A stretch of DNA of 64,000 nucleotides from a virus. Of this stretch, positions 5,499 to 43,784 are shown in pieces. The translations under genes and the position numbers were made by a program. How positions within the stretch are numbered: the first letter of the stretch is position 1; every line of letters starts with the position of its first letter. The notes below the pieces were generated by a model that was not told where the DNA came from, searched no databases, and worked only from the letters and a program-made list of their open reading frames with translations. The stretch is taken from the IMG/VR virus record IMGVR_UViG_3300034073_004654, positions 12,893 through 76,892 of that record; one strand, given 5' to 3'.

Positions 5499-6164
5499 TC
5501 ATAAATATGTTAGATTTACTAAGCCCGAAAGCTCTTTAAATTGCTTCAAGTCATATTCATCTTCTATATCAGATAGCTTTTGAATAATATTTTCAATTGC
5601 CTGGTTTCTTTCTTGCCATTTTTCAGGGAATTTTGGTAGTTTTTTCTTTAAGAGAATATTATATAATTTTTTTAATTCCTTTTCTGCTTCAAATAAACGC
5701 TCATCTTTGGAGCCTTTTTTTAACAATCCTGTTATTGCTTCATATAAAGACTGTATGCGATTTCTAATTATGCTTTCTTGGGGGTGTAATTTCGGGCTCG
5801 AGCTTTCAAATTTTATATGATTATATAATGTTGTAAATTTTGGAGATTTTAAATATGATTCTCTTATTTTTATAAGCCTTTGAAAAGCATTTTCAATTTT
5901 TTCAGAGTTGCGTGGATCTGTTTGTAAATCGTACACTATTTCTTCTAGTTCTTTTTTTGCTAAGGCTAATTGTTGCTGTTCGGCAGCAGAATATTTAACA
6001 GCTTCGGTAGGACTTAATGCTTGTTTTAATCCGCCGTATAAACTTCTCATGCCTTTCATAATGGATAAATTATCAGGTTTTTGAATATTATTTTGAGACA
6101 ATTTATCAAAACCATATTTAATATTATAATAATTTGCTACTTTGATAATTGAATTTAATGACAT
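5499..6164 (-). CDS. leader-family putative virion protein
   Basis: N-terminus MSLNSIIKVANYYNIKY resembles 20929 and 22126; AATA-N6-TATT at 6192-6205. Confidence 0.75.
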   Translation of the reverse strand: MSLNSIIKVANYYNIKYGFDKLSQNNIQKPDNLSIMKGMRSLYGGLKQALSPTEAVKYSAAEQQQLALAKKELEEIVYDLQTDPRNSEKIENAFQRLIKIRESYLKSPKFTTLYNHIKFESSSPKLHPQESIIRNRIQSLYEAITGLLKKGSKDERLFEAEKELKKLYNILLKKKLPKFPEKWQERNQAIENIIQKLSDIEDEYDLKQFKELSGLVNLTYL

Positions 6165-6328
6165 GTCGATTACCCTTTAAACTCTTACATTAATATTTAA
6201 TTATTAGTAAAAAGTTAGCAGAAGCTTTAGAAGATCAACGAAACTAAATGGTTTTCCAGTCATCCAAAAAAGCCGACCCAGCTATTCCGAAAATTTGCCA
6301 CCCTAATAAACTATCTGCAATTAAAGCG

Positions 6329-6357
6329 TTGACTTGGAAAACATCCCGACTTATACT
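6329..6357 (+). promoter_or_regulatory. sigma70-like promoter
   Basis: TTGACT-17-TATACT. Confidence 0.75.
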
Positions 6358-6805
6358 GTAGATCGAGAGGTAGTACCATGCCGAAAATTGATCCTATTTC
6401 TGGTTGTTCTGTTATGACTATGACTGAGTTTTGGGCTGCTGAAGCTCAAAAGGAAGGAAAAGATGTAGCAGAAGTTATGGAAGATTTCCATAATGATATT
6501 GCTGCCGATGAGGAAAAGACTCGACAAGGAATGTTGAAAGATTTTTCGGGAGCTTTGGAGAAGCTTAAGGAATATTATGATCCTGAATATGATGATTCAG
6601 GATTGGTTCCGGTAGAAGTTCTGGAAATTACCGACGCTGATTGTTCTTATGGTTATAGCAAATCAAAGAGCAGCTTTGTCGCAAAGGTTCGATTTGAAGA
6701 TCAAGTGCGAAATGTTCAGTATTCCGAGGTTTCGCACAATGGCAGCTTTTACGAGCCGCCCGATTTTGAGGCTAATTGCGTAATTCTTTGAGAGGAGAAA
6801 ATATT

Positions 6806-7087
6806 ATGAATAAAACAATTCTTTTGGTTACGATCTTTTGTAGCGGTTGTGCAAAGGAAACAGTTGTCCAATCGCCAGATAAAGTAGTTGTTATTCAAGC
6901 TCCGTGCGGGTCAAATCCTGATAATTTTGATCAAGCGGGAAATATTCTTGTCAATGGGGCTCGTTGGACATATAATCAAGCAAAGAATACTTACGAATGG
7001 GTGTTTTCTGAGGAAAATCAGAAAAAAGCTATGGATTTGCTAACTGACGCTAAGAAGAAGGCTGAAAATTTCGTTCAATCGGAATAA
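6806..7087 (+). CDS. putative lipoprotein
   Basis: MNKTILLVTIFCSG-C signal peptide/lipobox; GAGGAG RBS. Confidence 0.55.
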   Translation: MNKTILLVTIFCSGCAKETVVQSPDKVVVIQAPCGSNPDNFDQAGNILVNGARWTYNQAKNTYEWVFSEENQKKAMDLLTDAKKKAENFVQSE

Positions 7088-8037
7088 AGGAGAAATATCA
7101 TGAGCGCAGATAATGCCATTGTTATTGGTAAGTTCCTAGTTAATGGAAAGGTAGCATTTTCCGTAGTAGAAACAAGTGCCATCGACAATGTTGATTATTA
7201 TCGAAATCGAGGCAATTCTCGAGAATTGCAAGAGTACGTTCATGATATTTGGAAGCGTGGAAAATTTTTCCTTGATGAAAAGGAAGCTTTGACTTATGCT
7301 CATACCACAAATAATGAGTGTGGAACCGAATACGGAGTAATCAGCATTGATTTCTCCGATATTTCTCCTATGCCAAGCTTGGTGAGTTTCGTGGATGCTG
7401 CAAAGTTTGCCGAAAACTATGAGTCAAAAGATATGAGAAAGACTCAGCCGGAAATCAAACTGGATAAAGAGTGGGTGGCTGAAACTCTAGGCATTTTCAA
7501 AGGTTTACTAGCAGCATGTCCAATGACCGAATCAAAAGAATTTGAGCTTTGGATGATGCACCAAATTCACAAAATGTGGCAAGACAAAAAAATTTCAGGA
7601 AATCAAGTAGCTTTGCTGTTGGATGAAGTTTGCTGTTACTGAGGTAATATGGAAAATCTAACTGTAGCAGAATTGTTGGCAAAGCGAGCTAAAGAAAAAG
7701 AACAAGGTGATTGGTATCCTGCTAGTGGAGGAACAGAAACTCCATTTCTTACTAGATCGAGACGCCGATTGCTGTATGTTTGGCAACCGTCTACTGGTAA
7801 ACATGCTTATTTGGACTGCGACACTGATCTAATTCTTTCAGATGAAGAAGCTGAAATAGCCTTGTCCATGTATTAAAAAAATCTTATTATGTGGTCTTGA
7901 CAAGATATTATCCGTGTTTATGTTAGCGGGAAGGGCAACACAGACCAAGAAAGAAATAATTATGTTGAGTTTAATTGAATTCCTGGTTGTTTCCAGTCTT
8001 TTGTCGGTTTCCTTTTTCTTTCAAGGATCGAATTAAA

Positions 8038-8292: not shown

Positions 8293-8304
8293 TTTAGAGG
8301 GAAT

Positions 8305-12343: not shown

Positions 12344-12571
12344 TTATGATTTTTTCTGTTGATTATCTTAACGGTCTTTGGAAAATCAATATCAACAATT
12401 CTCTGGCAGAAAATGAGTTGTTTGATTCTTCTCTGAAAACATTAAATCAAAACTGCAAAATTAAATCAGTTTTTTTGAACAATACCGTTTGGGCTTTTGA
12501 GGATATTCGTATGTTTGCAGACGCATGTGTTAGCTTACGAGAACGTGGCTTTGTTCAAGATTAATTTAATT

Positions 12572-13533: not shown

Positions 13534-14655
13534 TTAGTCTTCGTCTTCATCCTCATCCTCATCCTTAATATATGAAAGGAATTTACCTAAATCATTATTA
13601 ACTAATTCTTCTTCCCACCCATGTTCAAAATAGTTTAATAATTCCTTCATTTTTGATAAACATCCAATCATCCAGCTTCTTAAAGCTGAGGAATCTGTCT
13701 GCTCTATGATAGATGATTCTGTAATTTTTTTATTATATTCATCAAAAATATTTTGTAATTTAAAAGCGTTCCATGCATTTGAAGATGTGAAACCTTCTAA
13801 TGGCTTTAAAGCAAAAGCTATAAAATTGTCCACATTGGACAGCATTTGATGTTTTAATTTTGACAATATACCATCTACCAATTGTTTTACTTTTGGCGGC
13901 ACTTCTTTGGATTTAGAAATATAACTTTCTGATAAATTTGGTTTGATTTTATCAAATTTATTTCTAAGCTCTGCTTTGGCAATATGAAATATTTCTTCAA
14001 TGGTTTGAATTATTTCTCTTTTAGAGTGCCCTTTAAAATTCTTTATGAATAAAAATCTTATATACCCAGCTAGTCCTTGAGAGGTTTCATTTATAGGCTG
14101 AAATCCGCTTAAAGATGAAGCTAAATCTTCATTTAACTGATCCATCAATGTAATAACTTCCTTATTATCTTTGTCTTTTTGAGTTGTTAATTGATTAACA
14201 AAGTCATGTTCTATTACTTGGTGAATTAAATCATGAATTAATATAAAAATAGGACTTTCAACATTTTCGCTTTTGGAATCTAGAACACCTTGATTTTCTA
14301 AATGATTTAAAATATCATAAGCGTTAATTTTTGGAAATTTCTGATTATAAGAATCGCAAATAAATTTAATTAATTCTTTGGTTTTATCGTGAGATAAATA
14401 AAATGACTTTATGTCCTTATCTGAAGAACTACCTATGATTCCATAATTAATTTCTAAATTCTTAATAGCATTTTTGATTTTATTATCGAAAATAGCAAAA
14501 TTATTTATATCGTTATTAATTTTTGCCATTCTATTGCCAAACCAAAGACCTGAATGTAATTTTTTACCGAGCGGCTCTCTTAACTGAAATAACTCAGGAG
14601 AAGCAGCCAGTTTGGCAAATAAATTAACAGCTCTATTTAACAGCTTAATATCCAT
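13534..14655 (-). CDS. leader-family putative virion protein with acidic tail
   Basis: Likely start MDIKLLNRAVNLFAKLA at 14655; AATA-N6-TATT at 14661-14674; HDLIH zincin-like motif; C-terminal DEDEDEDED. Confidence 0.75.
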   Translation of the reverse strand: MDIKLLNRAVNLFAKLAASPELFQLREPLGKKLHSGLWFGNRMAKINNDINNFAIFDNKIKNAIKNLEINYGIIGSSSDKDIKSFYLSHDKTKELIKFICDSYNQKFPKINAYDILNHLENQGVLDSKSENVESPIFILIHDLIHQVIEHDFVNQLTTQKDKDNKEVITLMDQLNEDLASSLSGFQPINETSQGLAGYIRFLFIKNFKGHSKREIIQTIEEIFHIAKAELRNKFDKIKPNLSESYISKSKEVPPKVKQLVDGILSKLKHQMLSNVDNFIAFALKPLEGFTSSNAWNAFKLQNIFDEYNKKITESSIIEQTDSSALRSWMIGCLSKMKELLNYFEHGWEEELVNNDLGKFLSYIKDEDEDEDED

Positions 14656-15063: not shown

Positions 15064-15732
15064 ATGAAAATATCAAGTTTAATTAATACCATTAATAAAT
15101 TTGCAACATTAGTTAAATTAGCATCCAATTCTCTTGAAAAAGAAACCATGGGTATAATACATATTCCCTTTGGGCGAGAGTTTATGCTCAAGGAAACCAT
15201 AAGAATTCCCAGTTCCAAAGAAGGTCAATTTTATTATTTGAACCCAGGAACGGCTCTTAAGATAGTCGATTATACTTCAGATGGGACTCCTAAATGGAGC
15301 GTCTCTGGATGGTATTCAGAAAGAATTTTTAATTTATCAGAAGAAGATAAATTAAAACTTTTAGATTTAAGAAGCTTTTTTTCAGAGGCAGCTAGCCTTT
15401 TAAAAGGTGGTAAATTTTTTCCACCAGAATCAAATAATATTAAAGTTTTTAAAATTATTAATGACGAAAATTTAGAAATCTTTATTAGTTTTGATCCGGA
15501 ACTTAACATTGAAACTTATGGTCTTGAAGAAGATCAATATCTTAGCCCCTCCCAAACTTATAAAGAAGAGCAATCCAAAAACGATCCAAATAAAAAATTT
15601 AAATCTTTAAGAAAAGAAGCCATAAGAGCTTTTTCTTCACCCCTTGCATTTCTTCGATTCTGTGGAGTTCCTATCAAATTAGATGTGTTAGGCGATGACC
15701 CATCTATCTTAGAAGAAGAACAAGAAGATTGA
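15064..15732 (+). CDS. leader-family putative virion protein
   Basis: MKISSLINTINKFATLVKLA; AATA-N6-TATT at 15045-15058. Confidence 0.75.
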   Translation: MKISSLINTINKFATLVKLASNSLEKETMGIIHIPFGREFMLKETIRIPSSKEGQFYYLNPGTALKIVDYTSDGTPKWSVSGWYSERIFNLSEEDKLKLLDLRSFFSEAASLLKGGKFFPPESNNIKVFKIINDENLEIFISFDPELNIETYGLEEDQYLSPSQTYKEEQSKNDPNKKFKSLRKEAIRAFSSPLAFLRFCGVPIKLDVLGDDPSILEEEQED

Positions 15733-15940: not shown

Positions 15941-16852
15941 TTATATTTTTACGTTCCTCAAATATCTTAAATAATGTTCTACTGGAGTTTCTTTATTTTC
16001 TTGTCGAGAGGTTTTTCCGGCTGGCTTTGGAAGTCGATTCTCTGCCGGTAAAATTTCTTCAATCCCTGCACGATCTAACATATCACTGTGAGTTGTTTTA
16101 ATTTTTCCAGCATTGTCCTCCACAAATGATATGAAAACCCTTCCAGGCATTTTATTGTTATTCATAAATGATCCAATCTCACCAGCCAATGAATTAATCG
16201 CCGCTTCATAAGCCTCTTTATCAAATGGAATGATTTCCTTCTTACCCAATGGAGTTTTTGGATAATCTTTTGTCTCTAATCCACCAGCTCTCATTACCGG
16301 ATCTTTAAATAATCCAGGATTATCATATTGAGGAAAATCATCCCAGAAATCTTGAGGCACTACCCCTAAAGGTTCGCTAATCGTCACAAAATAAATTTCT
16401 CCATTGATCGGCAATTCCCCAGACTTTGCCATCTCTAAAATTCGATGATAAGCATTGTATAAATCAGATTTTTTAGGTCTGGTTAATCCCCAAGGCTTTG
16501 TCTTTGCACAAGGTACTAAAATAATTACCTTGTAACGCTTAGGGATTTTAAACCCCCTCATCTTATCCATCCATCCTTTAATTTTAGGATGATTCAATAA
16601 TTTAACAGTTTCTCCAGGAGTATAAGCCGTCAGTTCCGAATCCAATTTCGGATTAGATCTCTTGCTTCGATTTAATAAATACTCTCTAAAAGGTTCCCAT
16701 TTCTCACGACCTACATATGGAAAGTTTGAACCAGAACGAGATTGCCCTAATTGCCCCCTCTCAATATCAGATAAATCTATAGATGCTCTTTCATTCTCAG
16801 ATGCTAATCTGTAAAAGGCGTCTACTGCTTGAGCTAATTTCCAAATTTTCAT
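15941..16852 (-). CDS. leader-family protein with DUF5591/archaeosine synthase (ArcS)-like domain
   Basis: Leader MKIWKLAQAVDAFYRLA; ILVPCAKTKPW and TISEPLGVVP...P.YD motifs. Confidence 0.6.
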   Translation of the reverse strand: MKIWKLAQAVDAFYRLASENERASIDLSDIERGQLGQSRSGSNFPYVGREKWEPFREYLLNRSKRSNPKLDSELTAYTPGETVKLLNHPKIKGWMDKMRGFKIPKRYKVIILVPCAKTKPWGLTRPKKSDLYNAYHRILEMAKSGELPINGEIYFVTISEPLGVVPQDFWDDFPQYDNPGLFKDPVMRAGGLETKDYPKTPLGKKEIIPFDKEAYEAAINSLAGEIGSFMNNNKMPGRVFISFVEDNAGKIKTTHSDMLDRAGIEEILPAENRLPKPAGKTSRQENKETPVEHYLRYLRNVKI

Positions 16853-18474: not shown

Positions 18475-19497
18475 ATGTCAAAAATCTCAAAAATCCTAGA
18501 AGCCTGCGATATTTTCTCTCGTCTTGTAAAAAAAGCTGATTATTCAGCTGACATTACAGATGGCAAGAAAGCTTTAAATAATTTGAAATCCGTCATTGAG
18601 GGATTGGATATTGAATCTTTTAGAAGGATTTTAGAAGAGGAAAATGACGAATATCGTTATTTACCTGGAAGATTAATGGGGGATAAATATAAAGATTGCA
18701 GGGTTCAATTTCAATATAAGGATGAACCGCAAAAAGAAGATAAGTTTATTAATTTTGAAATAGTTAACAGGGATGATTACGAGGATTATGAAGCTTATGA
18801 GGATGATAAGCCAATATCCACTCCAATTGGACCTGCCATTTTACAAGACGGCTATGATTTAGAATTAATATTAGATATTGATAGTTTTTCAAGTCATCGA
18901 AATTATTTATTTAGTGAAGGTCGAACTCGTCCCAGTGAATTTTTTGAATTTAAAATAGAAGAAGGAGCTGAAGAAGATGAATACATTAATGACTTAGATG
19001 AGGCTTATTTAATTGGATTAAAGAAAGCAATTATTAAGGCTTGTTCAAAGGAGCAGCCTGCATTTTATCATGAGGTGGCTCATTTAAGAAGAATGAGAAA
19101 GCAAAACCCTATAGAATTTATTAAGCAATGGAACCCATCAAAATCGCCCAATGTACCATTAAATTTGATGAAAGCTAATTTTAAAACTGATACTGAGTTA
19201 TATCCACAGGAGTTGGAGCGATTTTCTAATGAACTTCGCAAATTAATTAATGAATTTAATTTAAGAAAAAGCAAAAGAGATCCTTCTTGGGAGGAGCTAA
19301 GTTTCTTGGATTTCTTGGATCAAATTTATGATATGCGGTCCAAACATAATTTTATTACATCTATGAAGGGAAGAATGGATATCGGTCTTGGTTTCTATGA
19401 TGAATATGATGATTATTCAAAATCCGCGATAAAAAGAATTTCCAAGTTTTACGATGACATGGTAGCTGGGAAATTTAAAGATACGCTTGGCATTTAA
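18475..19497 (+). CDS. leader-family protein with zincin motif
   Basis: MSKISKILEACDIFSRLVKKA leader; FYHEVAH. Confidence 0.7.
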   Translation: MSKISKILEACDIFSRLVKKADYSADITDGKKALNNLKSVIEGLDIESFRRILEEENDEYRYLPGRLMGDKYKDCRVQFQYKDEPQKEDKFINFEIVNRDDYEDYEAYEDDKPISTPIGPAILQDGYDLELILDIDSFSSHRNYLFSEGRTRPSEFFEFKIEEGAEEDEYINDLDEAYLIGLKKAIIKACSKEQPAFYHEVAHLRRMRKQNPIEFIKQWNPSKSPNVPLNLMKANFKTDTELYPQELERFSNELRKLINEFNLRKSKRDPSWEELSFLDFLDQIYDMRSKHNFITSMKGRMDIGLGFYDEYDDYSKSAIKRISKFYDDMVAGKFKDTLGI

Positions 19498-19514: not shown

Positions 19515-20363
19515 ATGTCAAAGATTGTGAAACTTTTAAAAGCCTGCGAGATATTTTCTCAATTGGTTAAGAGTGCTCAAGAGCAATTAGAATTACCTTT
19601 TGGTGAAGATTTGAAATATGGCGATCCTGGATATTGGGAATATGCCAACGATGAATCAATTAATTATGATTTTGATGAATGGGTTAATGGATACATCACC
19701 ATAACGTATACTGATTTATTTAAGTTTTTTGACAGGTTAGAAATAAAATATAAAGCTTGTGGAAAAACTTTGCAACCAGCATGGGGATTGGTTTTTAATC
19801 ATGATGATGAAAAATACGTTTTAACTTTTGAAGGAAAAGTTAGTAACATTGAGGAGTTAAGACGATCTGAGAATGAATGTGATTCTCCTACTGAAGCTAA
19901 GAGTTTTGTTGTTGGGGCTGATGAAGATGATTTAGATAGATATGTAGGAGAATCTACGATAAGCGAAGATTTTTGGGAGTCTCCATCGGTCTTATATCAT
20001 GCTACAAGTTTTGATAATAAAGAAGACATTTTAGAGGATGGATTAATTGCAAAAAATGATGCTAGGGCGATTATAAATAAATCTGTTGGTTCGGCAGTTT
20101 TTACAAGCACCAATCCTGATGCAATTGATGCTTATGGTGGATTAATCTTTGAAATTGACACTCAAGCAATGAAAGCAAATGGTTACACTCCAGAGATCGG
20201 AATAGAGCCAGACATCATTGAAGGCGAAAGAAAGCAATCATTGGCTCATATGGTTGGATTAGAAGATTATAATTATGATTATACCGACATTGGGGTGGAC
20301 CCTGATACCATCATTGTTTTTGGCGATATACCTAGTGAATATTTAAAGGTTTACCAAGAATAA
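19515..20363 (+). CDS. leader-family protein with C-terminal ADP-ribosyltransferase-like (Tpt1/PARP-type) domain
   Basis: Leader ...LVKSA; LYHAT....IL..GL, AVFTS, YG..IFEID, IIV.GDIP.EYL. Confidence 0.6.
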   Translation: MSKIVKLLKACEIFSQLVKSAQEQLELPFGEDLKYGDPGYWEYANDESINYDFDEWVNGYITITYTDLFKFFDRLEIKYKACGKTLQPAWGLVFNHDDEKYVLTFEGKVSNIEELRRSENECDSPTEAKSFVVGADEDDLDRYVGESTISEDFWESPSVLYHATSFDNKEDILEDGLIAKNDARAIINKSVGSAVFTSTNPDAIDAYGGLIFEIDTQAMKANGYTPEIGIEPDIIEGERKQSLAHMVGLEDYNYDYTDIGVDPDTIIVFGDIPSEYLKVYQE

Positions 20364-20858: not shown

Positions 20859-20928
20859 TTAGAGTGGTTTGTTAAATCTTTTAATTCAGACAATAATTAA
20901 ATATAAGTCTATAGTTATAGGAGATGAA

Positions 20929-21732
20929 ATGTCATTAAAAGATTTAATTAAAGTAGCGAATTATTATAATGTTAAATATAGTCTTGAAGCCGAAGAATCT
21001 TTAATAAAGGAAGCGGCTGGCAAATATGATCATATTGATTTTAGACCACCTGAATCTGTGGCAAAAGCAGCGGCGAGGGGATTGGAGCTGCGTAAGAAGA
21101 ATAAAGGCAAAGGCGGATTATCTGTGCAGCAGGCACATAAGCAAGGAATAGGATCTGGGGTAGCTAGGGCTGCGTCTTTAAAAAATCGAAAAACTTTAAG
21201 TCCAGCTACTGTGCGTAGGATGAAGGCATTTTTTGATCGTCATGAAAAGAACAAGGGCGCTAGCGGTGGAAAACCTTTAGCACAAGATAAAGGGCATATT
21301 TCTTGGTTGCTTTGGGGTGGCGATCCTGGTCGAAGCTGGGCGAATAAAATAGTAAATCAAATGAATGCAGCAGATAAAAAAACAGTTAGAGCGGCTATTG
21401 AATATTTATTACGCAAGAATGGCAGTGCTTCTATTTACCCTCATCCAAGCTCCGAGGAAAGGTTATTTAATCCTGACATGGTGGGGCAAGTCATTCAAGA
21501 AATTGGTGGTCGGGAAAATTTCGATTCTCTTTTGCCGAGAGAAAACCAAATAGCTGATTTTATATCTGCTAAGGAAATTCTATTAGAGAAAGTAAAGAAC
21601 GCTTATGAAGAATATAAGGCTTTAAATCCATATAGCTTTGATGATGATGATGAGAAAGCTCAAGCATATCAATTGGTAATTCAATATATTGAGAATTCTA
21701 TTGATGATGCGAAAAATTTGTACAGGAACTGA
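20929..21732 (+). CDS. leader-family basic putative head protein
   Basis: MSLKDLIKVANYYNVKY; PP..VA.AA.RGL...RM..FF.RH...WLLWGG..G..WA domain seen in phage head-associated proteins. Confidence 0.65.
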   Translation: MSLKDLIKVANYYNVKYSLEAEESLIKEAAGKYDHIDFRPPESVAKAAARGLELRKKNKGKGGLSVQQAHKQGIGSGVARAASLKNRKTLSPATVRRMKAFFDRHEKNKGASGGKPLAQDKGHISWLLWGGDPGRSWANKIVNQMNAADKKTVRAAIEYLLRKNGSASIYPHPSSEERLFNPDMVGQVIQEIGGRENFDSLLPRENQIADFISAKEILLEKVKNAYEEYKALNPYSFDDDDEKAQAYQLVIQYIENSIDDAKNLYRN

Positions 21733-21734
21733 GT

Positions 21735-22100
21735 ATGTCAAAGGCTATTAAAATTCTACAAACCTGTGAGGCGTTTTCTTCCTTGGTAAGGAAAGCGGAT
21801 TATCTAACGGACCCAATAGATGATAGGAAGGAGTATTCTATTTATTCGGAAGATGAGGTTAGTCTATTGGACTTAGAATTTAGCAACCTAATTAGAAAAT
21901 TTTATATAGAGAAGAATTTACAAAATCCTGGATTTACTTTTCCTGATTATTTACTTGAAAAGTACAAGATATCTACTAAAGAAGAATTTATTAAATACAT
22001 AACTGAAAAATTAAATGTAAATGAATATGACGAGATTGACAAGATGGGTAAATTTTACGATCGAATGACCAGGGGAGATTTTGATCAATTGATTCAATAA
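21735..22100 (+). CDS. leader-family protein, short paralogue of 18475
   Basis: Shares ...LV.KADY..D..D N-terminus and KFYD.M..G.F C-terminus with 18475. Confidence 0.7.
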   Translation: MSKAIKILQTCEAFSSLVRKADYLTDPIDDRKEYSIYSEDEVSLLDLEFSNLIRKFYIEKNLQNPGFTFPDYLLEKYKISTKEEFIKYITEKLNVNEYDEIDKMGKFYDRMTRGDFDQLIQ

Positions 22101-22125: not shown

Positions 22126-22491
22126 ATGTCGATAGCAAATCTTGTTAAATTAGCCAATTATTATGAAGTTAAATATAAATTCGCATCTGGATATGATTTA
22201 AGAGAGCGTTCCGTCGATTTTTGGAATGAAGTAGAGTCTGAATCAAAACAATTGGTTACAAATTTTATGGCAGTAAATGCCGAAGGTGATCTTGGGGGAG
22301 AAGAAGCGGCTAAGTTAGCCTTCAATATGCAAAGTGAAATTGATAATTTGGTTGAAAATTTTTCATTAAAATTTAATGAAAAATTTTCGAAAAATCTTGA
22401 CAAAATAAAATTAAAAGAATACATTGAGCTAACCATACAAGAAGAATTAGAATCAATTTCTGAAACATTAAACATTGAATTGCCTAATTAA
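22126..22491 (+). CDS. leader-family protein
   Basis: MSIANLVKLANYYEVKYKFA; AATA-N6-CAT at 22096-22108. Confidence 0.7.
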   Translation: MSIANLVKLANYYEVKYKFASGYDLRERSVDFWNEVESESKQLVTNFMAVNAEGDLGGEEAAKLAFNMQSEIDNLVENFSLKFNEKFSKNLDKIKLKEYIELTIQEELESISETLNIELPN

Positions 22492-26725: not shown

Positions 26726-28021
26726 ATGTTTAGAAATAAATTTGATAAGATAGCTTTTTGCATAGATGAATTTGAAAAGATGGTGCGCCTTAATAAAGTC
26801 GCAGATTGGGCAGGCTTTGCGCCGACAGCCACAATTACTTCAATTTTAGCGGCTCCGGCAATGGCTCCAGCGGGACTTGCATTGGATTTGGTAGGGAAAG
26901 CCATGAAAAAAAATAAAACCCAAGCACCACCTACAATAAACGCTCCAGCATCACAACCATCGGAGATGGTCGAAGAACCTGGAGATGCCATTCCAGTTCC
27001 TTCTGCCTCAAAGGCAGAGCCTAAGAAAAAAGAGACTTCCGCAGAAAATAAAACAAAGACTCCTCCTAAAGATGAAGAAGAAGAAGAAGAATATGATGCT
27101 GATCTTAATACCGAAAGCGATGATGAAATTCTAGCTGATAATGAAAACGAAACACCTGTTTCCAAACCAAGTGTAAGGGGCGGTGGAGGTTCTAAAAAAA
27201 TCGATTCTAAATATCAAAAAATAATTAATTTTTATTTAGAAAAATGGCAACAAGACAAAATTGAAGAAGATGGTTTATGGGGACCAAAAACTCAAAAAGC
27301 CCTTGATTTTATCAGCTCTTTATACGAAAATAAATATAAATTCAAGTCATCTAGCGACTTGGGCAATTTAGAACAATTATACAATAATTTAGTAGAAAGC
27401 CTAGAGTCTGAAAAAACATCGCCTGCAAAGCCATCACCTGAAAAAACATCACCTCAAATGGGATTAATTGCATCTCATAAGACAATGCAAATAAAAACCG
27501 CATCAGATCCAGGTCAAAAATTTTCTGCACAACTTATTAATATTCAAAAAGGACTTGGATTTTTAAAAGATCTCTTTGGCGAAGATGATAGCATTGGAGA
27601 CTTGAAAAATGAAATTATTGGCTTATGGCAAGATGCCCAACTTTCTTCTATACTTAAGAATTTAAGCAACAGATATGTTCCCATAAGAGAAAATCTTATT
27701 AAGCATATTAATGGAAATTTATATTACTCAGAATTTGCTAACAATCCTAAGAATCCAATGGCTGCTGAAAACTATAAAACATATGTAAATGAAGTTTCTA
27801 ATTTTATTAATTCTTTAGATAGAAACTTTGGAATTGCCTCATCTCAACAAATTATGGGACAAGTTGAACAAAGAGAATCTAGCCCGCAGCCAGCCTCTCA
27901 ACCAACTTCACTTGATTCGCCAACAGTTCCAAAAGTCCAATCACCAAAAGTTTCACCATTTGTAAATAAAGACTCATTAATTTCAGCAGTAACTACTAAA
28001 TACAATCCCGAAACCATTTAA
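26726..28021 (+). CDS. leader-family protein with peptidoglycan-binding motif
   Basis: Leader ...FEKMVRLNKVA; DGLWGPKT.KAL; internal IKTA. Confidence 0.65.
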   Translation: MFRNKFDKIAFCIDEFEKMVRLNKVADWAGFAPTATITSILAAPAMAPAGLALDLVGKAMKKNKTQAPPTINAPASQPSEMVEEPGDAIPVPSASKAEPKKKETSAENKTKTPPKDEEEEEEYDADLNTESDDEILADNENETPVSKPSVRGGGGSKKIDSKYQKIINFYLEKWQQDKIEEDGLWGPKTQKALDFISSLYENKYKFKSSSDLGNLEQLYNNLVESLESEKTSPAKPSPEKTSPQMGLIASHKTMQIKTASDPGQKFSAQLINIQKGLGFLKDLFGEDDSIGDLKNEIIGLWQDAQLSSILKNLSNRYVPIRENLIKHINGNLYYSEFANNPKNPMAAENYKTYVNEVSNFINSLDRNFGIASSQQIMGQVEQRESSPQPASQPTSLDSPTVPKVQSPKVSPFVNKDSLISAVTTKYNPETI

Positions 28022-28088: not shown

Positions 28089-28451
28089 TCAGCCTTTGCC
28101 AGGCTTCTTGGCAGCTTTAGAAACTTCAATTCCTGGATAATGTTTCTTGACAGCTTTGGCAACTGCATTAACTAATGATTCAAGGGAGCCATTATACCAT
28201 TCAGGAGCTTTGGAATATTGGTTAGCACGAGCTAAAGCATTTTGAGCTTGAGCTTTGTTGGTAATTGGAAAATGATCTTTGTCATCCTTGACTTTAGGAT
28301 GCTCAGCAGGAAATACACATTTGCCCCGGCTTCTGACAGCGGCTTTTGGATCGTGTTTTTTCTCTTTCTTTTTGGCGGTTTTAATGTTTTCATAGACGAC
28401 CGTCTCAAAAGCCTCTACTTCTAACAATAATTGATCGACTGAATTTTCCAT
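28089..28451 (-). CDS. leader-family basic protein
   Basis: ...VEAFETVVYENIKTA; HFPI....QA.NALAR domain. Confidence 0.7.
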   Translation of the reverse strand: MENSVDQLLLEVEAFETVVYENIKTAKKKEKKHDPKAAVRSRGKCVFPAEHPKVKDDKDHFPITNKAQAQNALARANQYSKAPEWYNGSLESLVNAVAKAVKKHYPGIEVSKAAKKPGKG

Positions 28452-29218: not shown

Positions 29219-29623
29219 ATGGAAAATAATTTTTTAAAAAACCTGTATGCCGCCATTGATGTTTATTATGGATATATTAAGATTGCCCAAGAAACGGGTG
29301 AAAAAATAGTTCCATTCGATCATTTAATGCAAATCGGTGAGCGTCTTGCAGGGATAAGGTCTTATCCTTATTTAAATTTAATTACAAGAATGGATAAAGA
29401 ATATAATTATATTAATCAATATAATCGCTTAAAAGAAAAATACAAAGATTTAGACGATAAAAATATAATTAATGTTGCATTTAAACTTTGGGTAGAATAT
29501 TGTTTTGAAAATAACATAATATCCCAAGTAGAACAAGATGATCTTTTGAAATTGCTTGAGGATTTGAAAAAGCCAATTAGCGAATCTGAAGTTAAGGAAT
29601 TATTTAGTAATGAGTTGACCTGA
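29219..29623 (+). CDS. leader-family protein
   Basis: ...LYAAIDVYYGYIKIAQ. Confidence 0.65.
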   Translation: MENNFLKNLYAAIDVYYGYIKIAQETGEKIVPFDHLMQIGERLAGIRSYPYLNLITRMDKEYNYINQYNRLKEKYKDLDDKNIINVAFKLWVEYCFENNIISQVEQDDLLKLLEDLKKPISESEVKELFSNELT

Positions 29624-31405: not shown

Positions 31406-32773
31406 TTAAAATTCTCTGATTCGAGCTGGTGGCTTAACCGCAAGGGCTCTTGATGCTGCTTCTTCGAGATACTTTTTTAAATCTGGTTCAATATTTTTAA
31501 AAGAATTACCTTGTATTGCTCTGCTCATTTGATTTAAAAATGTAACTCCAAATAAATCGGATCCAGCCAGTTCAATCATTTGATTGATGCTCATTTGTTC
31601 ATTTGATTCAATATTTTTCTGCTCTATTTCCCTAGCCAAATTAATTATTGAAGATCCCAGCTTATTCATTTTAATGATCTCTGCGTAAATTTGGGAAATT
31701 TCTGATCTGGTTTTATTTTCCTTTATGATTTTCTCTTTAATGTTTTCTATTGAGTTTACTATTGATGATGAATGGCTCTTCATTTCTTGATATATTGTAT
31801 CTTTAGGTCTATTTAACCCAGGAGCACCAGCTTCTCCTTTTACTAAATATTTTTGCATTAAGTCATTAATTACTCTGCTATTATCTCTGCGTTCGGTGGC
31901 GGCTGCGGGAGTGGAAGAATTAGAGGGTGCGGTGCTTTGAGCGGGTTTTGCCCCTCTATAATATTCTAAATATTGTTGTCTCCATTCTTTGGAACCAAAG
32001 TCAGCCTTGCTTAATCTGGCTATTTTAGCTAAATTATTATAAATAGTAGTCCCTACAGAAGAAAGTTGTTTGTTTGTAGTTTCTAAAAACGCTTTATAAA
32101 ATGATGGTTTATCAGTTGGTGGGTTTGCAGAGCGATCATAAATTGATTTTAATAGCCTTGCTGCCATAAAGGCTGATTGCATATTATTAAATATTTGAGG
32201 GTTTATTTCTTTAAGATTTGAATTTCCATAGTTTGCCCACCAATTTTTTAATTGGACATAAACTTGCTTCCCATTTTCAGACCATGTTGGGTCAATTTTT
32301 CCTTTTGTAAAACTCAGCCCCGTAGTGGCTACATATTTAGCAGGCTCTAATAAAGAAGCTGCAATCTTGACTGCTGCCATTTTTGCTTTTTTAACATCCC
32401 CTGATTCTAATGCTTGTATTTGAGTTTCATTTTTTGGTGAAACTTTATTAGATGAAACTTTATTAGATGAAATTTCTTTAAATAGGTTAGGAAGATCTTT
32501 ATCAGAATAAAACTTTCCATTTGTAGGAATTGATTTAAAAGCATTGCTTTTTGTATCTCCTTTTACATACCAATATCCAGGATCTCCTAAAACCCAAAAA
32601 TAATAGATCTTATCTTTTATTAAGACCAAAGCCCCTCTGGTATTTCTTCCCGAAAATTCAAATCCAAAATCAGCCGCATATTGCCCAAGTAAAGACAAAT
32701 TAACATCTTTTAGTGGTGTATCTGCTTGTTGAGCCCATTTTAATAATTTTTTCATTCTTAATGAATAAGCCAT
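31406..32773 (-). CDS. leader-family-like large protein
   Basis: MAYSLRMKKLLKWAQ; AATA-N6-TATA at 32803-32816; internal KIA/SKA sites. Confidence 0.7.
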   Translation of the reverse strand: MAYSLRMKKLLKWAQQADTPLKDVNLSLLGQYAADFGFEFSGRNTRGALVLIKDKIYYFWVLGDPGYWYVKGDTKSNAFKSIPTNGKFYSDKDLPNLFKEISSNKVSSNKVSPKNETQIQALESGDVKKAKMAAVKIAASLLEPAKYVATTGLSFTKGKIDPTWSENGKQVYVQLKNWWANYGNSNLKEINPQIFNNMQSAFMAARLLKSIYDRSANPPTDKPSFYKAFLETTNKQLSSVGTTIYNNLAKIARLSKADFGSKEWRQQYLEYYRGAKPAQSTAPSNSSTPAAATERRDNSRVINDLMQKYLVKGEAGAPGLNRPKDTIYQEMKSHSSSIVNSIENIKEKIIKENKTRSEISQIYAEIIKMNKLGSSIINLAREIEQKNIESNEQMSINQMIELAGSDLFGVTFLNQMSRAIQGNSFKNIEPDLKKYLEEAASRALAVKPPARIREF

Positions 32774-36401: not shown

Positions 36402-36893
36402 TTAAAATCTTTTTCTTTGTTTTAGATATTCTTCCCGCAATTCTTTAGAAGAAAAATCTGTTTTATAATATTTTGAAGCTCTTATAATTTTCTCTGATGC
36501 TTTCAATGACGAATCTTTAATTGCGTTAGAGAGTTCTTCCCAATAACCCTGCCAAGACTCGGGCGATCCTTCATGCCAAGGAGTGCTTTGAAACAATTCA
36601 AATGCTTCTTTAGCTTTATTCATTTCTTCAAAAGCTTGATTTAAAAGCTTAGCTACTTCAGATCCAGCAGCAGATAACTTTGAATAAGATGTTAATTTCC
36701 ATTCTTTTAAAGAACGATAAATAAATTTTCCACTTTTACTCCACTCTGTAAAGTTCCACTCTTCCCCCATAGTATCGGGTGGAAGATTTTTCATGTTATT
36801 AATGACTTTAATATGAGGCATCAATGAATTAATAATTTTCATTGTTTGACTTGGTATATTTTCTAACATTGCTAATTTAATATTTTTATTCAT
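36402..36893 (-). CDS. leader-family-like protein
   Basis: MNKNIKLA; AATA-N6-TATT at 36914-36927. Confidence 0.6.
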   Translation of the reverse strand: MNKNIKLAMLENIPSQTMKIINSLMPHIKVINNMKNLPPDTMGEEWNFTEWSKSGKFIYRSLKEWKLTSYSKLSAAGSEVAKLLNQAFEEMNKAKEAFELFQSTPWHEGSPESWQGYWEELSNAIKDSSLKASEKIIRASKYYKTDFSSKELREEYLKQRKRF

Positions 36894-37605: not shown

Positions 37606-38142
37606 TCAATCTTCTTCGTCATCTTCCTCGTCATCTTCTTCAATTTCTTTAAAGAAAACGGCGATGCCTCCTTCATATGCTGAATTTACTATATTGTAAT
37701 CAATATTATCAAGTGGGACATATTCTACATACATATCTTGATCGCTATATGTAGTATATTTTTTTAATAAACTTAAAGCATATGCCTTTTGCTCTTCAAT
37801 GCTTTTATATGGTTGTTCCGTAAACATGCCAAATCTAAAAACAAATGTCGGTTTTTTGCTGAAATAATTAGCGTCTGGTATTGCCATTGTAGATTCAATG
37901 ATGCATACTGGTGCGTCTGATCTGGGTGGCTTACCTTTTTGAGGTTTAAATACAGACTGCCTAGGAAATACAGTTTTAATTATATTTTTAGTAGATGGGT
38001 CTAAAAGTCCCACCCAAGAATCAAATATAGCTTTTTGCTGACCTTCGTCTTTGACCTTTGGAAGCTTTGCTATTTTTGTTAAGTATTCACTTGTTCTTCT
38101 TAATAAAAGATCGGAAGCTTTATTTAAAAAATCATATTTCAT
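37606..38142 (-). CDS. leader-family protein with acidic tail
   Basis: ...LLLRRTSEYLTKIA; AATA-N6-TATA at 38176-38189. Confidence 0.7.
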   Translation of the reverse strand: MKYDFLNKASDLLLRRTSEYLTKIAKLPKVKDEGQQKAIFDSWVGLLDPSTKNIIKTVFPRQSVFKPQKGKPPRSDAPVCIIESTMAIPDANYFSKKPTFVFRFGMFTEQPYKSIEEQKAYALSLLKKYTTYSDQDMYVEYVPLDNIDYNIVNSAYEGGIAVFFKEIEEDDEEDDEED

Positions 38143-39350: not shown

Positions 39351-39393
39351 TCCAGTTTAATAATATTAAGATATATTTGCATCGGAATAAAAT

Positions 39394-40329
39394 ATGAATA
39401 AATACGAAAAAATACTTTTATCATGTGCTGCCTTTGATGAAATGATAAAACGAGCCGTCAGACGGACTTTATCTACACCCGTTTCTCCTAGACCTTCATT
39501 TAGGGCTCCAAGGTCCAGCCCTCCAAGCATTCCGGTATTAGATCCTCCAACAATTAGAACGCCATCAAGTCGAGCACCTACAACCACTTTAGATGGAGGT
39601 CCTCCAACAGTTGTGGATAGTCGCCCACCTATGTCCTCTCCTGTTTCATCTCAATCAGCCGCAACAGTTGTGGATAGTCGTCCCCCTATTTCATCTTCTA
39701 TGTCATCTCCTTCTCTTGTTCCGCCTGCTAGTAAAGTTCCACCAGCGGCAGCCACTGCTTTGAAAACTAGATTGAGAAGTCTTTTAACTAGCGGCTTAAC
39801 TGGTGGCAAAGACTTATTCTCAAAGAATCCCAAAAAAGCCGCAGCAGCAGTTTTATTAGGTGGCGTTGCACTTATTTATTATGCTTTAAAAGGAAAATCT
39901 CCCTCAACTGACAATGAAGAAATGAAAGAAGTTATTGATATTGCGATAAAAAACAATCTATCAGAACTTCCAAAGCCTGCCGAATTATTTAACAAATTAA
40001 ATGATATTAATTCTTTTTTCCAAGAAAAAGCTGCTAAAAATACAAAAATTGCAGAGAAGTTTGGGGTATACATAGAGAAGACAAGTGATATAATTAATGA
40101 TTTAAATTCATTATCTAATATTCAATTAGATGTTAATAATACGCAATCTGTTGTTAATTTCATTAAAGAATCTAAAAGAATGGAACCTAAGTTGGGTGAA
40201 TATCTTGCCATTTCAAAATTAACTCAAGATAAGATTGTAATGCCAGAGTTAAACCAAGAAATTGGTGAAGTTAATTCCATGTTAGAACAATATCAAGTTC
40301 TTTTTAGCCAAGTCAAAAATATAAGTTAA
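39394..40329 (+). CDS. leader-family protein with Pro/Ser region and TM helix
   Basis: ...AAFDEMIKRA; AAAAVLLGGVALIYYAL; AATA-N6-TATA at 39362-39375. Confidence 0.75.
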   Translation: MNKYEKILLSCAAFDEMIKRAVRRTLSTPVSPRPSFRAPRSSPPSIPVLDPPTIRTPSSRAPTTTLDGGPPTVVDSRPPMSSPVSSQSAATVVDSRPPISSSMSSPSLVPPASKVPPAAATALKTRLRSLLTSGLTGGKDLFSKNPKKAAAAVLLGGVALIYYALKGKSPSTDNEEMKEVIDIAIKNNLSELPKPAELFNKLNDINSFFQEKAAKNTKIAEKFGVYIEKTSDIINDLNSLSNIQLDVNNTQSVVNFIKESKRMEPKLGEYLAISKLTQDKIVMPELNQEIGEVNSMLEQYQVLFSQVKNIS

Positions 40330-40335
40330 GAAGTT

Positions 40336-41481
40336 ATGAAAAAAATAAAAAACATATTAGATCAGTCGATTGAATTTGAATCTATAGTTAAAAAAGCTTT
40401 TTGGAAGTCATTTAAAAGTCTTGTGACTGGGACTCGACCTATGAGAGTTCCCCCTGGAGGAACTAGACCAATACCTAGAAGGGTTCCACAAGGCTTTAAT
40501 GTTATGGAAGCAACGCCTACCGGACCAGTGTTAAAAAGAGGAATAAAAGAAATCAGTCCAGGAGTTTATGAATTAGAACCGGGATTTAAAATAAATCAAA
40601 CTGCTGGAACAATAGAACCAATTAAGCCAAGTTTGCCACCTGGATATTCTCCTGAATCTGGAGGAATGTTAGCTAAATTGACTGATGCTGAATTATTAAG
40701 TTTATATGATACAGACTTAAAGCAACTACAATTTAAAATTTCAGATTTAGACAAATTGCCCGATGCCTGGAAAAAGCCCGATGGTAGTGATATAAATCTA
40801 ACCCCGGAACAAATCGCAACAGTGCAATCAGAAGTTCGAATTCAAAATCAAAAAATCAGAGATAAAATAAAAGAATTAAAAAAAATAGATCGCAGCACGG
40901 TTCGAGGTGAAGCTTGGTCTGAATTAAAAGGTTCTAAGGGATTTAAATTTACCGCTGGTACGAGTGCTTTAATTGGTCTTGTTACAATTTATAAATTATT
41001 TTCCAATGACGATCCAAAAACGGATAGCGATGAAAAGAAAAACGTCATCAATAAAAGTCCTTTATCAAGTTATTTGGCAGGAGCACCAAACTCATTAGAA
41101 GTGATTAAGAATTTAAATTCGCTATTAGCAATTTTAAATTCTGTCATGAATCAATCAGGTGAGCTTCGCTCACAAGATCTTGCTACGCTAAATAATTTTA
41201 TTAGAGAAACTAGAACGGCTAAAAGATCCATGGAAAATTTTGCTAAATTAAAATTAGATTTAGATGATATGAATTCAGTTCAGCAATATATAATAAATTT
41301 AAATTCTTTAGAAGAAGCATTAATGAAATTTAATGTTACATTGATGGATATATCTGATATTGCTGCCAAATCAAGAAATATGAAACTATTAAGCATTGTC
41401 AACCAATTAGATGAAGCTTTTTCTGAATATTCCAATATAATCACAAAGGCAAAAAGCTTATCAGCTTCTGACAATATTTAA
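40336..41481 (+). CDS. leader-family protein with TM-like helix, paralogue of 39394
   Basis: ...IEFESIVKKA; AGTSALIGLVTIYKLF; LDLDDMNSVQQYI vs LDVNNTQSVVNFI. Confidence 0.75.
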   Translation: MKKIKNILDQSIEFESIVKKAFWKSFKSLVTGTRPMRVPPGGTRPIPRRVPQGFNVMEATPTGPVLKRGIKEISPGVYELEPGFKINQTAGTIEPIKPSLPPGYSPESGGMLAKLTDAELLSLYDTDLKQLQFKISDLDKLPDAWKKPDGSDINLTPEQIATVQSEVRIQNQKIRDKIKELKKIDRSTVRGEAWSELKGSKGFKFTAGTSALIGLVTIYKLFSNDDPKTDSDEKKNVINKSPLSSYLAGAPNSLEVIKNLNSLLAILNSVMNQSGELRSQDLATLNNFIRETRTAKRSMENFAKLKLDLDDMNSVQQYIINLNSLEEALMKFNVTLMDISDIAAKSRNMKLLSIVNQLDEAFSEYSNIITKAKSLSASDNI

Positions 41482-41493
41482 TAAGAAAAAATT

Positions 41494-42267
41494 ATGAACA
41501 ATAAAATTTTAAACTTAGTCGGTTCTATTGATAAATTTCAAACCTTAATTAGAAAAAATGCCGTTGCTCCTGCCGCTGCTGGTGCCGCCGCGAGCACCAC
41601 TCAAATAGCAATATTAATAGCTCTAATTCCAATTGTTAGTCGCGGGATAGACAAATTTTTTAACACTACTAAACTCCCAGATGATGCTAAAAGAATTCAA
41701 GAAAATTTATTAGATTATAAAGAAGATTATCAAGATGAAGATTGGTTTAAGCCATTTGCTAATGAATATAATAGTTTTTTAGATAAATTAAATATTTTAA
41801 TTAAAGGAAATGAAGAAATAATTAACTTATTAGCCCTTCCTAAGGGCGAAGAAACTAACGAAAAAATTGCTATAGAAATACAAAAATTTCTAACTGCCCT
41901 GGGAGAAGCTGAAAGATTAGCCCCTGGAGTAAATGCATTTCTGGAAGAAAACAAAAATTCTGCCACCAAAGCCCTTGATTTTGTCGGAGAAACCTTTGGC
42001 GCTCTTGGAATAAAAACAGATTCCATGGCTGCACAAGCTGGAATAATGTCATTTTATCAACATTCTCAATACGAGAGACTCAAGTTAGAACAAATATTAA
42101 TTGACGCTACTAAAGAAAAAAAATCTACTCCTTCACAGGGCAGAAAATTCGATCTCAATCAGCCATTAATTGAAGAAGAAAAACAGAAGGGATCGGAAAG
42201 AAATCCTCCAGCTCAAATTTCTTCCGTTGAAGATTTTGCAAACATATTTAATGTTGAAGCCGAATGA
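41494..42267 (+). CDS. leader-family protein with hydrophobic helix
   Basis: ...IDKFQTLIRKNA; IAILIALIPIV. Confidence 0.75.
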   Translation: MNNKILNLVGSIDKFQTLIRKNAVAPAAAGAAASTTQIAILIALIPIVSRGIDKFFNTTKLPDDAKRIQENLLDYKEDYQDEDWFKPFANEYNSFLDKLNILIKGNEEIINLLALPKGEETNEKIAIEIQKFLTALGEAERLAPGVNAFLEENKNSATKALDFVGETFGALGIKTDSMAAQAGIMSFYQHSQYERLKLEQILIDATKEKKSTPSQGRKFDLNQPLIEEEKQKGSERNPPAQISSVEDFANIFNVEAE

Positions 42268-42296
42268 ATAAGACCACTTTACATCTTGGAATATAA

Positions 42297-43784
42297 ATGA
42301 GAAACTATTCAAAAATTCTTAAACAAGCAAAAAATTTTGAAAAAAAAGTACATGAAGTCAATCCTTCAGTTGTCGTAACAGAACATGAAGGCGTAGACCC
42401 TGTTTCTTATATGGCTTTTAATAATTTAAAAACCGTTATCAATGATGCCACCGAATTATTATCTATTTTAAATAATGAAGATGATCTTCCTCAATGGGTA
42501 GATGAAATGTTAGCTATGTCTAAAGGCAATGTGTCTAAAGCTTTAGATTATGTCCGATCTGAAAAAACTGAAACAGAATCTTTGCTAGAAGATGAAGACC
42601 ATGATCATGAATTAATAGCAGAGGGTCAATATCGAGGCTTCTTATCTTCTGTTAAAGACGTTTTTAATAGACCTAAAACAGATCTCGAAATTAAATTGGT
42701 ACAAATTGACGAAGAACTTAGAGATGCTTTCTTATCTTATGGTCCATCAGAATTATCATTGACTAAAAATTTAAATTTGGCTCAAAAATCAATTAATGAA
42801 AATAACTTCTTAAAAGCAAGAAAGCATTTAACGGATTTTAATAATGCCTTGCAATTCATGTCAAATAGAGCAACTGATTTTATTAATTATTCTAAGCTCC
42901 CAGGTAAACAAGCTGGGTTTTTCGATTTTTTTAAAAGTAAAAAAGAACAACCTGTTCGCACAGAGATTTCTCAATTATTGTTTGAACAATTTAATAAATT
43001 AATTCTTGCTGGGGAAAGTACCTTAATAGCGGTTAAATCTATTTTTGAAATGCTGGATAAATATCGTTCAGATAAAAATATTAATGCTTATATAAGCATG
43101 TTAGAATCATTGAAAAATGAACAAAGAATTTTTAGTGAAAAATTCGACACTCTTAAAAAAGAATATTTTATGTATTTAGGCGAAACTGGCAGTGAAATGA
43201 TTGGTAGTACTTTAAAAGAAATGAAAAAAGACCTGTATCAGCCTAAAGAAGATAAATATGTTGGAGTTGGCGGATTGGAAACATCTCAAGCTCCAATTAA
43301 AGCATTAAAATTTGAAGTTCCGCCACCAGAAGCTAAAAAAGATCAATTTACAGGATATGATGTTTCCGCTCCAGAATCTGAGTTATCTCCTTGGGCAAAA
43401 CAAATGTTGCCAGTTTCTCCCAAATTTGATCGTGTAGATGAAACGGGAGAATGCCCATGCGGTAGTAGATTGCCATGGCTTGCATGTCATGGATTTGACG
43501 AGAATAAATTTGAAAAAATGAGGGATGAAATAACGGACAAAATGGCAAAAGACATAATGATTAAAAAGAATATTTCTTACAAAGAAGCAAAAGAAGAAGT
43601 AAAAGAAGAAGCAGAAAGACAAGCAGAAATTAGATATTATAACTGGGTTAATCTTTATCTTGCTCGTAAAGCCAGGATAGAAGCAGAAAAAGAAGCTAAA
43701 AAAGAAGAGAATCGTCAAAAGAGAATTAAAGATTATTTAAAATTTGAATCTAATGTTGAACATATATTTCCACAAAGAGCATAA
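42297..43784 (+). CDS. leader-family-like protein with SEC-C motif
   Basis: MRNYSKILKQAKNFEKKV; CPCGS......CHG. Confidence 0.7.
   Translation: MRNYSKILKQAKNFEKKVHEVNPSVVVTEHEGVDPVSYMAFNNLKTVINDATELLSILNNEDDLPQWVDEMLAMSKGNVSKALDYVRSEKTETESLLEDEDHDHELIAEGQYRGFLSSVKDVFNRPKTDLEIKLVQIDEELRDAFLSYGPSELSLTKNLNLAQKSINENNFLKARKHLTDFNNALQFMSNRATDFINYSKLPGKQAGFFDFFKSKKEQPVRTEISQLLFEQFNKLILAGESTLIAVKSIFEMLDKYRSDKNINAYISMLESLKNEQRIFSEKFDTLKKEYFMYLGETGSEMIGSTLKEMKKDLYQPKEDKYVGVGGLETSQAPIKALKFEVPPPEAKKDQFTGYDVSAPESELSPWAKQMLPVSPKFDRVDETGECPCGSRLPWLACHGFDENKFEKMRDEITDKMAKDIMIKKNISYKEAKEEVKEEAERQAEIRYYNWVNLYLARKARIEAEKEAKKEENRQKRIKDYLKFESNVEHIFPQRA

Follow-up and report, generated by a model that had tools for sequence, protein, structure and literature searches.

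A 64,000-nucleotide stretch of a virus contig in IMG/VR (IMGVR_UViG_3300034073_004654), hereafter the window, encodes a dispersed set of mostly unrelated proteins that begin with similar short peptides. We found that these N-termini form a real, portable tag system, with at least two classes (tag A and tag B) and a promoter-like motif of its own. The best reading of this system is that the tagged proteins would be loaded into the capsid and cleaved at a K-x-A site, a proposal that in our view falls a little short of an even chance. The window covers bases 12893-76892 of the 76,892-bp contig, which has a GC content of about 35% and a CheckV completeness of 21%, the latter implying a huge phage of roughly 350 kb. 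No close relative of the contig was found in INPHARED or IMG/VR, and among INPHARED phages neither the window nor P0080, an ortholog of the tagged protein starting at 18475, had a relative that was near or recognizable at the protein level.

A first-pass annotation had proposed a family of about 19 unrelated proteins sharing one amphipathic leader that ends in K/R-x-A. All N-termini that it quoted are present in the sequence at the starts given there, and the observation of shared N-termini is confirmed, but instead of a single leader family there are two tag classes. The larger one, tag A, has the consensus MSKIxKhLxxCxxFxxLVKKA. A hidden Markov model (HMM) was built from its six clear members (genes are named by their start positions: 18475, 19515, 21735, 39394, 40336 and 15064) and scored on the candidate N-termini of the contig, on 35-residue windows starting at internal methionines, and on reversed N-termini. 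This added 41494, 42297, 26726 and 16852, all with scores above every internal-methionine and reversed control, so that ten genes carry tag A by the HMM. Gene 28451 is borderline, while 14655, 29219 and 38142 align convincingly by eye and are not separated from noise by the HMM; inspection by eye thereby adds four genes to the ten. Among the weaker candidates in the original count, 42297 was accepted by the HMM, whereas 32773 and 36893 received no support for a tag. The description of the proteins as unrelated is mostly correct, as BLASTP linked only 18475 with 21735, 39394 with 40336 (and with 42297), and 32773 with 36893. The amphipathic helix is a property of tag A (helical moment 0.47, as compared with 0.30 for other N-termini, p 5e-6) and not of tag B (0.23).

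Tag B, with the consensus MSLKxhhKVANYYxVKYGFxKxA, corresponds to what had been noticed as a subfamily with the pattern L/I.K.ANYY..KY, and proved to be a class of its own. It is found in six genes on the contig, three in the window, at 6164 (minus strand), 20929 (plus) and 22126 (plus), and three upstream of it, at contig positions 565 (minus), 5361 (plus) and 8725 (plus). By employing a tag-B profile in an exhaustive HMMER search of 1.84 billion protein cluster representatives (E below 0.001), we obtained 77 matching clusters, and in 76 of these, with proteins 51-380 residues long, the match lies at residues 1-5. The bodies behind the tag, taken together with those of the tagged proteins of the contig, form 61 BLAST components, of which 40 have a single member, which bears out the idea of an N-terminal tag on a swappable set of proteins. 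A metagenome scan seeded by the tag-B alignment yielded 13 short contigs with one to three tag-B genes apiece; their sources were freshwater samples and a single GOS read set. Many small genes are common to these contigs and the present one, in shuffled order. Other approaches returned little: degenerate DNA patterns for tag B gave nothing or chance matches in IMG/VR, an alignment-guided scan of IMG/VR and GTDB genomes gave nothing, and a word-indexed search of 5.8 billion proteins with residues 1-40 returned the query itself as the sole match.

Tags are interchangeable between bodies, and bodies between tags. A segment resembling the PG_binding domain follows tag A in 26726 and tag B in P0029 and P0063, and in relatives different tagged bodies occupy one and the same syntenic slot, e.g. 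beside a conserved gene starting MEKYIDRV. The clearest case is the CCA-adding enzyme encoded by a tag-B gene upstream of the window, in which the PolyA_pol head domain begins at residue 51. Hundreds of homologs with 50-66% identity were found, many on contigs of 100-760 kb, and their common core starts ..AHGRSIALMKFLS, with the tag placed directly before it. Only the three closest homologs have tag B, most have no tag, and at least 13 have, at the position of tag B, a third peptide, M..LARRVAxR[FY]LxA (RVAxRYL), which we call tag R. In the form M..LIxRVAxR[FY]LxA, tag R heads many unrelated proteins of 100-2500 residues in GC-richer huge phages (loci L019-L092, and L093-L114 in genome G001). 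Yet another ortholog (L047) starts MNNWYHKFAQ. The gene of the tagged CCA-adding enzyme, located just upstream of the window, accompanies genes for tRNA-Met(CAT), tRNA-Leu(CAA) and tRNA-Arg(TCT) at window positions 2396-2472, 3541-3623 and 17205-17275, respectively.

The tagged genes also form a class of their own by a promoter-like motif and by codon usage. A 13-mer of the form AATAW-N5-TAT lies 19-68 nt upstream of 12 out of 22 tagged genes and of one out of 135 other open reading frames (ORFs), a difference for which Fisher's test gives P = 2.6e-11, an optimistic value, since the pattern was refined after inspection of the tagged genes. The lone untagged ORF owes its copy to a palindromic partner in a divergent intergenic region, and three of the copies are identical (AATAATTAAATAT). 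Tagged genes that lack a 13-mer of their own are situated directly behind another tagged gene, as in the series 18475-19515, 20929-21735-22126 and 39394-40336-41494-42297. The same motif is found upstream of tag-B genes in the metagenomic relatives. Furthermore, GC content at third codon positions is 0.23 in tagged genes and 0.31 in the others (p about 1e-6), and the codons ATA, AGA and TTA together make up 9.2% as compared with 4.6% (p about 1e-6).

As motif and tag travel together, the shared 5' ends could be a feature of the nucleic acid, i.e. an element acting in translation initiation or in the mRNA, or a trace left by cassettes recombining at promoter-proximal homology, in which case the peptide itself would be functionless. 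The internal-protein loci of T-even phages are thought to shuffle via such homologies. We nevertheless consider such an explanation very improbable. The 23 DNA copies of tag B use four synonymous codons at invariant alanine and three to four at invariant valine positions, so that synonymous sites vary freely while the residues are fixed, and selection therefore acts on the peptide. Conservation is likewise at the protein level among the 76 tag-B clusters, and different tag peptides stand at the same position in orthologs.

The h-x-K-x-A end is common to tags A and B and falls at residues 19-24. For tag A this says little about the motif, since the set had been chosen partly on K-x-A in the first-pass annotation and is therefore unable to test it, while the tag-B proteins were gathered without reference to it. 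In 31 of the 76 tag-B proteins K/R-x-A occurs in one fixed register (..KYGFxKxA), and in 40 it occurs within 12 residues, against a background for [KR]-x-A of 0.6% per position; K-x-A is therefore part of both tags. Six orthologs, every one with the tag preserved, went into an AlphaFold2 model of the 18475 protein. This model has a separate tag helix at residues 3-20 and a hinge at residues 20-24 (predicted local distance difference test, pLDDT, below 50) that coincides with KKA|DY, followed by a next helix with pLDDT 94. Profile-profile comparison of A with B and of R with B gave weak, short alignments (P 0.018) in the register expected by eye, pairing KVANYY of tag B with RVAxRF of tag R, and gave nothing for A with R. 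As these alignments are weak, a common origin of the tags is at most possible. Sec, Tat and lipoprotein signal peptides were ruled out by direct reading of the sequences, as charged residues run through the whole of each tag and a hydrophobic core is absent.

The contig, a 21% fragment, was found to contain no head genes, and distant relatives were therefore examined. The genome G001 (363 kb, 53% GC) encodes a CCA-adding enzyme 60% identical to that of the contig, along with three further weak gene matches, and has about 15 tag-R genes, among them those for a DnaJ-domain protein, for the CCA/HD enzyme and, immediately following TerL, for a topoisomerase IB. Its tagged genes adjoin TerL and the portal gene, in a head module with the order TerL, portal, a 962-residue protein, a protease (phrog_18299) and a PF05065 capsid protein. 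No shared promoter was obvious upstream of the G001 tagged genes. In the capsid proteins of G001 and four other genomes (G002-G005) the N-terminus reads ..EYIKTAAGRxKLAASMxQPLR, with two K-x-A sites before a segment resembling the HK97 N-arm, and the tag of the tag-A-like gene 14655 ends FAKLAAS. This K-x-A pair is a hint, from sequence, of a role in the capsid. An R-tag HMM did not match the capsid protein N-terminus. Extra ORFs of 169-210 residues, at L145 (G003:37965-38180) and at G005:472566-472739, repeat the major capsid protein over its first ~70 residues (46-48% identity), one of them behind a hydrophobic N-terminus.

The portals of G001 and of Bacillus phage G (NC_023719, loci L116-L140) are related. 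Phage G is cultured, has a tag of its own and has a published particle proteome. In phage G, 23 ORFs start with MKRLIKK[SA] or MSRLKK.., as compared with 0.3 expected from the internal rate, and four of them (gp5, gp10, gp17 and gp20) are located in the 25-kb head module (p 0.03). The 23 ORFs begin at NC_023719 positions 4745, 9952, 16055, 17765, 28218, 38447, 65251, 70920, 73330, 81739, 103923, 134402, 147651, 179204, 214437, 245985, 254652, 382868, 388147, 405524, 435497, 446697 and 482110. The peptide MKRLIKK[SA] resembles the RLVKKA end of tag A, and gp13, beside the portal gene, starts MKRLISKTAARYAAS and resembles tag R. Particles of phage G contain 104 detected proteins out of its 668, many of them enzymes (PMC12484599). 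A wider proposition, which we regard as possible and rather doubtful, is that phage-G-like and related huge phages use a family of lineage-specific tags (A, B, RVAxRYL and MKRLIKK[SA]) with an end of the h-h-K-x-A type, which would load dozens to perhaps a hundred unrelated enzymes and effectors per genome into the capsid, where a head protease would trim them.

Alternatively, the tag might be recognized by an enzyme that acts on the protein, be it a modifying enzyme, a chaperone, or an unfoldase or protease for which the tag would be a degron timing the lifetime of the protein. The MSKISKIL start presumably resembles N-terminal recognition motifs of ClpX, e.g. that of lambda O. Phage G encodes a ClpX and a ClpP of its own, both of which were detected in its particles (PMC12484599). 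On the other hand, known degrons are shorter than a two-part tag of 20-24 residues, inspection of the loci of the 13 relatives revealed no partner gene that accompanies the tags, and no match to the radical-SAM family PF04055 was obtained at E 0.1 on the contig, which is a fragment. Recognition by an enzyme thus appears improbable.

A stronger competitor, if still an unlikely one, is that the tags dock or localize their proteins to a phage-made structure or hub other than the capsid interior, for instance a factory for replication or translation, a site at the membrane, or an adaptor of the tail or baseplate. They would then resemble the encapsulation peptides of bacterial microcompartments, which consist of an amphipathic helix followed by a linker, and tag A indeed forms an 18-residue helix of strong amphipathicity with a hinge behind it. 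The evidence of portability and of a regulon fits such docking equally well, and the tagged bodies include cytoplasmic enzymes, viz. the CCA-adding enzyme, DnaJ and a methyltransferase. However, tag B lacks amphipathicity, neither a receptor candidate nor a shell gene was identified, docking alone leaves the fixed K-x-A end unexplained, and the head modules of both G001 and phage G contain tagged genes.

According to the capsid-loading reading, which we favor, the phage would make a co-regulated class of proteins with a tag of 20-24 residues, composed of a short helix, a conserved aromatic residue and the h-x-K-x-A end. The tag would dock these proteins onto a common phage-encoded receptor, most likely the scaffold or core, or the inner surface, of the assembling procapsid, and the docked proteins would be enclosed in the head and injected together with the DNA, while a head maturation protease may remove the tag after K-x-A. 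Promoter and tag would constitute a cassette behind which the bodies are exchanged by recombination, giving each relative a different set of cargo. The receptor, the packaging into the head and the cleavage are what we infer here, and a number of observations weigh against them. The contig carries neither head genes nor a protease gene, and the link of this phage to G001 and phage G consists of the one 60%-identical enzyme and the three weak gene matches. At about 19% of the genes, the tagged share is far above that of any known cargo system, and there is no obvious reason to inject bodies such as the CCA-adding enzyme and DnaJ. K-x-A is absent from 42297 and from several tag-B genes, and an AlphaFold2 model of the tag-B CCA-adding enzyme has no hinge at K-F-A. 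In the relatives, conservation of the K-x-A lysines of the G001-G005 capsid proteins does not extend to the phage G capsid protein, and the R-like motif of the 962-residue G001 protein beside the portal is situated at an internal methionine. To these should be added the post hoc refinement of the 13-mer pattern described above.

The tagged genes of the window occur on both strands between positions 5499 and 43784. The first is the tag-B gene at 5499..6164 (minus strand, 221 residues, MSLNSIIKVANYYNIKYGFDKLS), which serves as cluster representative P0006 in the tag-B profile search and has the 13-mer AATAATTAAATAT at 6193..6205 (minus), 41 nt upstream of its start. It is followed by a tag-A-like gene, recognized by eye only, at 13534..14655 (minus, 373 residues, MDIKLLNRAVNLFAKLAAS) with two 13-mers 19 and 27 nt upstream, and by two HMM members of tag A at 15064..15732 (plus, 222 residues, MKISSLINTINKFATLVKLAS; 13-mer at 15045) and 15941..16852 (minus, 303 residues, MKIWKLAQAVDAFYRLAS). 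Another cluster begins with the HMM members at 18475..19497 (plus, 340 residues, MSKISKILEACDIFSRLVKKA with DY following the presumed cleavage point) and, immediately behind it, 19515..20363 (plus, 282 residues). The 13-mer AATAATTAAATAT is found again at 20892..20904 (plus), 37 nt upstream of the tag-B gene at 20929..21732 (plus, 267 residues, MSLKDLIKVANYYNVKYSLEA), and the upstream sequence is near-identical in locus L007. Next in this series are a tag-A gene at 21735..22100 (plus, 121 residues, HMM member), whose body is related to the C-terminus of the 18475 protein, and a tag-B gene at 22126..22491 (plus, 121 residues, MSIANLVKLANYYEVKYKFAS) with an ortholog in L007. An ORF behind this block, at 22475-23251, has a lipoprotein-like start (..KKIILSFLFLVSC) and is also kept beside tagged genes in L007.

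Further downstream, the tag-A gene at 26726..28021 (plus, 431 residues) has a 13-mer at 26705, and the borderline gene at 28089..28451 (minus, 120 residues), encoding a basic protein, has one at 28479. A tag-A-like gene recognized by eye only is found at 29219..29623 (plus, 134 residues, ..IDVYYGYIKIA). Two genes belong to the same regulon by their 13-mers, with the tag itself unsupported: the one at 31406..32773 (minus, 455 residues) has copies 43 and 64 nt upstream and no HMM support, and its paralogue at 36402..36893 (minus, 163 residues) also has an upstream 13-mer. The gene at 37606..38142 (minus, 178 residues, ..SEYLTKIA), again tag-A-like by eye only, has AATAATTAAATAT 47 nt upstream. 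Lastly, the 13-mer AATATTAAGATAT at 39362..39374 (plus) precedes a block of four tag-A genes spanning 39394-43784, all on the plus strand and all HMM members: 39394..40329 (311 residues, with a body rich in proline and serine), 40336..41481 (381 residues), 41494..42267 (257 residues) and 42297..43784 (495 residues, MRNYSKILKQAKNFEKKV), the last of these without K-x-A. Directly after it, at 43896-44495, lies the gene of a 199-residue protein with an SGGxDS PP-loop motif and a TilS-like appearance.

The bodies themselves gave few clues to function. Pfam and PHROGs searches with about 40 tagged proteins of the contig and 67 cluster representatives returned almost no matches, PDB sequence searches with three bodies returned nothing, and the ESM Atlas returned nothing usable for 40336. 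Of the domains that had been suggested in the first-pass annotation, the transmembrane bodies agree with hydrophobic segments in 26726 and 41494, which in both cases follow the tag. The zincin body of the 18475 family has in its favor that the HExxH motif (YHE[IVM]AHL) is invariant in the protein and its orthologs P0080-P0085, an otherwise orphan family; a Foldseek search of PDB with the AlphaFold2 model (pLDDT 71) gave no fold match, and the term zincin therefore reflects HExxH alone. One of these orthologs, P0081, has a 123-residue N-terminal extension, probably an upstream ORF that is read through. For the ArcS-like body of 16852 there is a weak match, below the cut-off, to the ArcS C-terminal-like domain DUF5591. 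As for the peptidoglycan-binding body of 26726, the PG_binding-like DGxWGxxTxxAL motif is present, at residues 154-212, and a Pfam match is not.

Apart from the tagged genes, three successive genes at window positions 52192-56664, encoding proteins of 396, 442 and 644 residues, have the appearance of a YeaH-SpoVR-PrkA trio. The 644-residue product is a PrkA/YeaG-like 'serine kinase' with ~34% identity to proteins of Thermus phages and of uncultured phages of 630-640 kb. Two TnpB-like ORFs of about 400 residues are found upstream of the window (contig 1-12892), at about 718-1935 (plus) and 11015-12187 (minus), and the first shares 50% identity, in its C-terminal part, with an ORF of phage G.

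For most huge-phage genes no function is known, and the tag would sort roughly a fifth of the genes on this fragment into one class, namely proteins with a common destination, probably the virion. It would mark proteins that act first in infection, with roles in e.g. counter-defense, RNA repair and cell-wall entry, and would offer a handle for packaging foreign proteins into large capsids. Should the wider proposition of a huge-phage tag family be true, the injected proteome of uncultured huge phages would be readable from sequence alone, and any protein would be packageable by addition of a tag.

We know of no publication on tags A or B. Among huge phages, the comparison tags MNWYKxAQ, MNRYDIALGKKPPP and a peptide in T4-like Bacteroidota jumbo phages that resembles the T4 capsid-targeting sequence (CTS) are mentioned here unchecked; in architecture and in the kinds of body, RNA-repair enzymes included, they are alike, but all of these differ from tags A and B as peptides. 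MNWYKxAQ is a tag of phage-G relatives, and the start of the CCA ortholog L047 resembles it. Shells of microcompartments and of encapsulins, the latter with the HK97 fold, receive unrelated enzymes as cargo by means of a short terminal peptide. The form of tag A, with its amphipathic helix (residues 3-20, moment 0.47) and hinge, is like that of the microcompartment peptides, whereas tag B, with a moment of 0.23 and no hinge, is unlike them. The cargo-loading peptides of encapsulins are usually C-terminal. Among the ORFs of the contig, a 21% fragment on which no dedicated microcompartment search was made, we noticed no gene for a shell of either kind.

In phiKZ and SPN3US, many head proteins are processed by one protease at A/S/G-x-E, and the propeptide has been proposed to target proteins to the prohead (PMC7411985). 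The three-residue motif is a point of likeness to the tags, but the propeptides of these phages are long (111-130 residues in SPN3US) and unshared in sequence, while the present tags are conserved peptides of 20-24 residues with a different motif.

The closest functional parallel would be the CTS of T4, which is the sole element common to its diverse internal proteins and is removed by gp21 (PMC3012670, PMC7411985). Like the CTS of IPI, IPII, IPIII and Alt (~10-20 residues), the tags are short N-terminal peptides on otherwise diverse proteins, with a small conserved end motif and with effector-like bodies that vary between relatives (PMC3012670, PMC7411985). Unlike it, tags A and B have no similarity to MKTYQEFIAE, end in h-x-K-x-A instead of the L/I-x-E cleaved by gp21, and come in two or three classes, with about 20 tagged genes in 77 kb as compared with four in the whole of T4. 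A T4-type prohead protease (Peptidase_S77, PF03420) was not matched in five related huge-phage genomes, nor in any of the control genomes. By analogy, then, the tag system would work like the T4 CTS while belonging to a different family by sequence, by cleavage motif and by type of protease.

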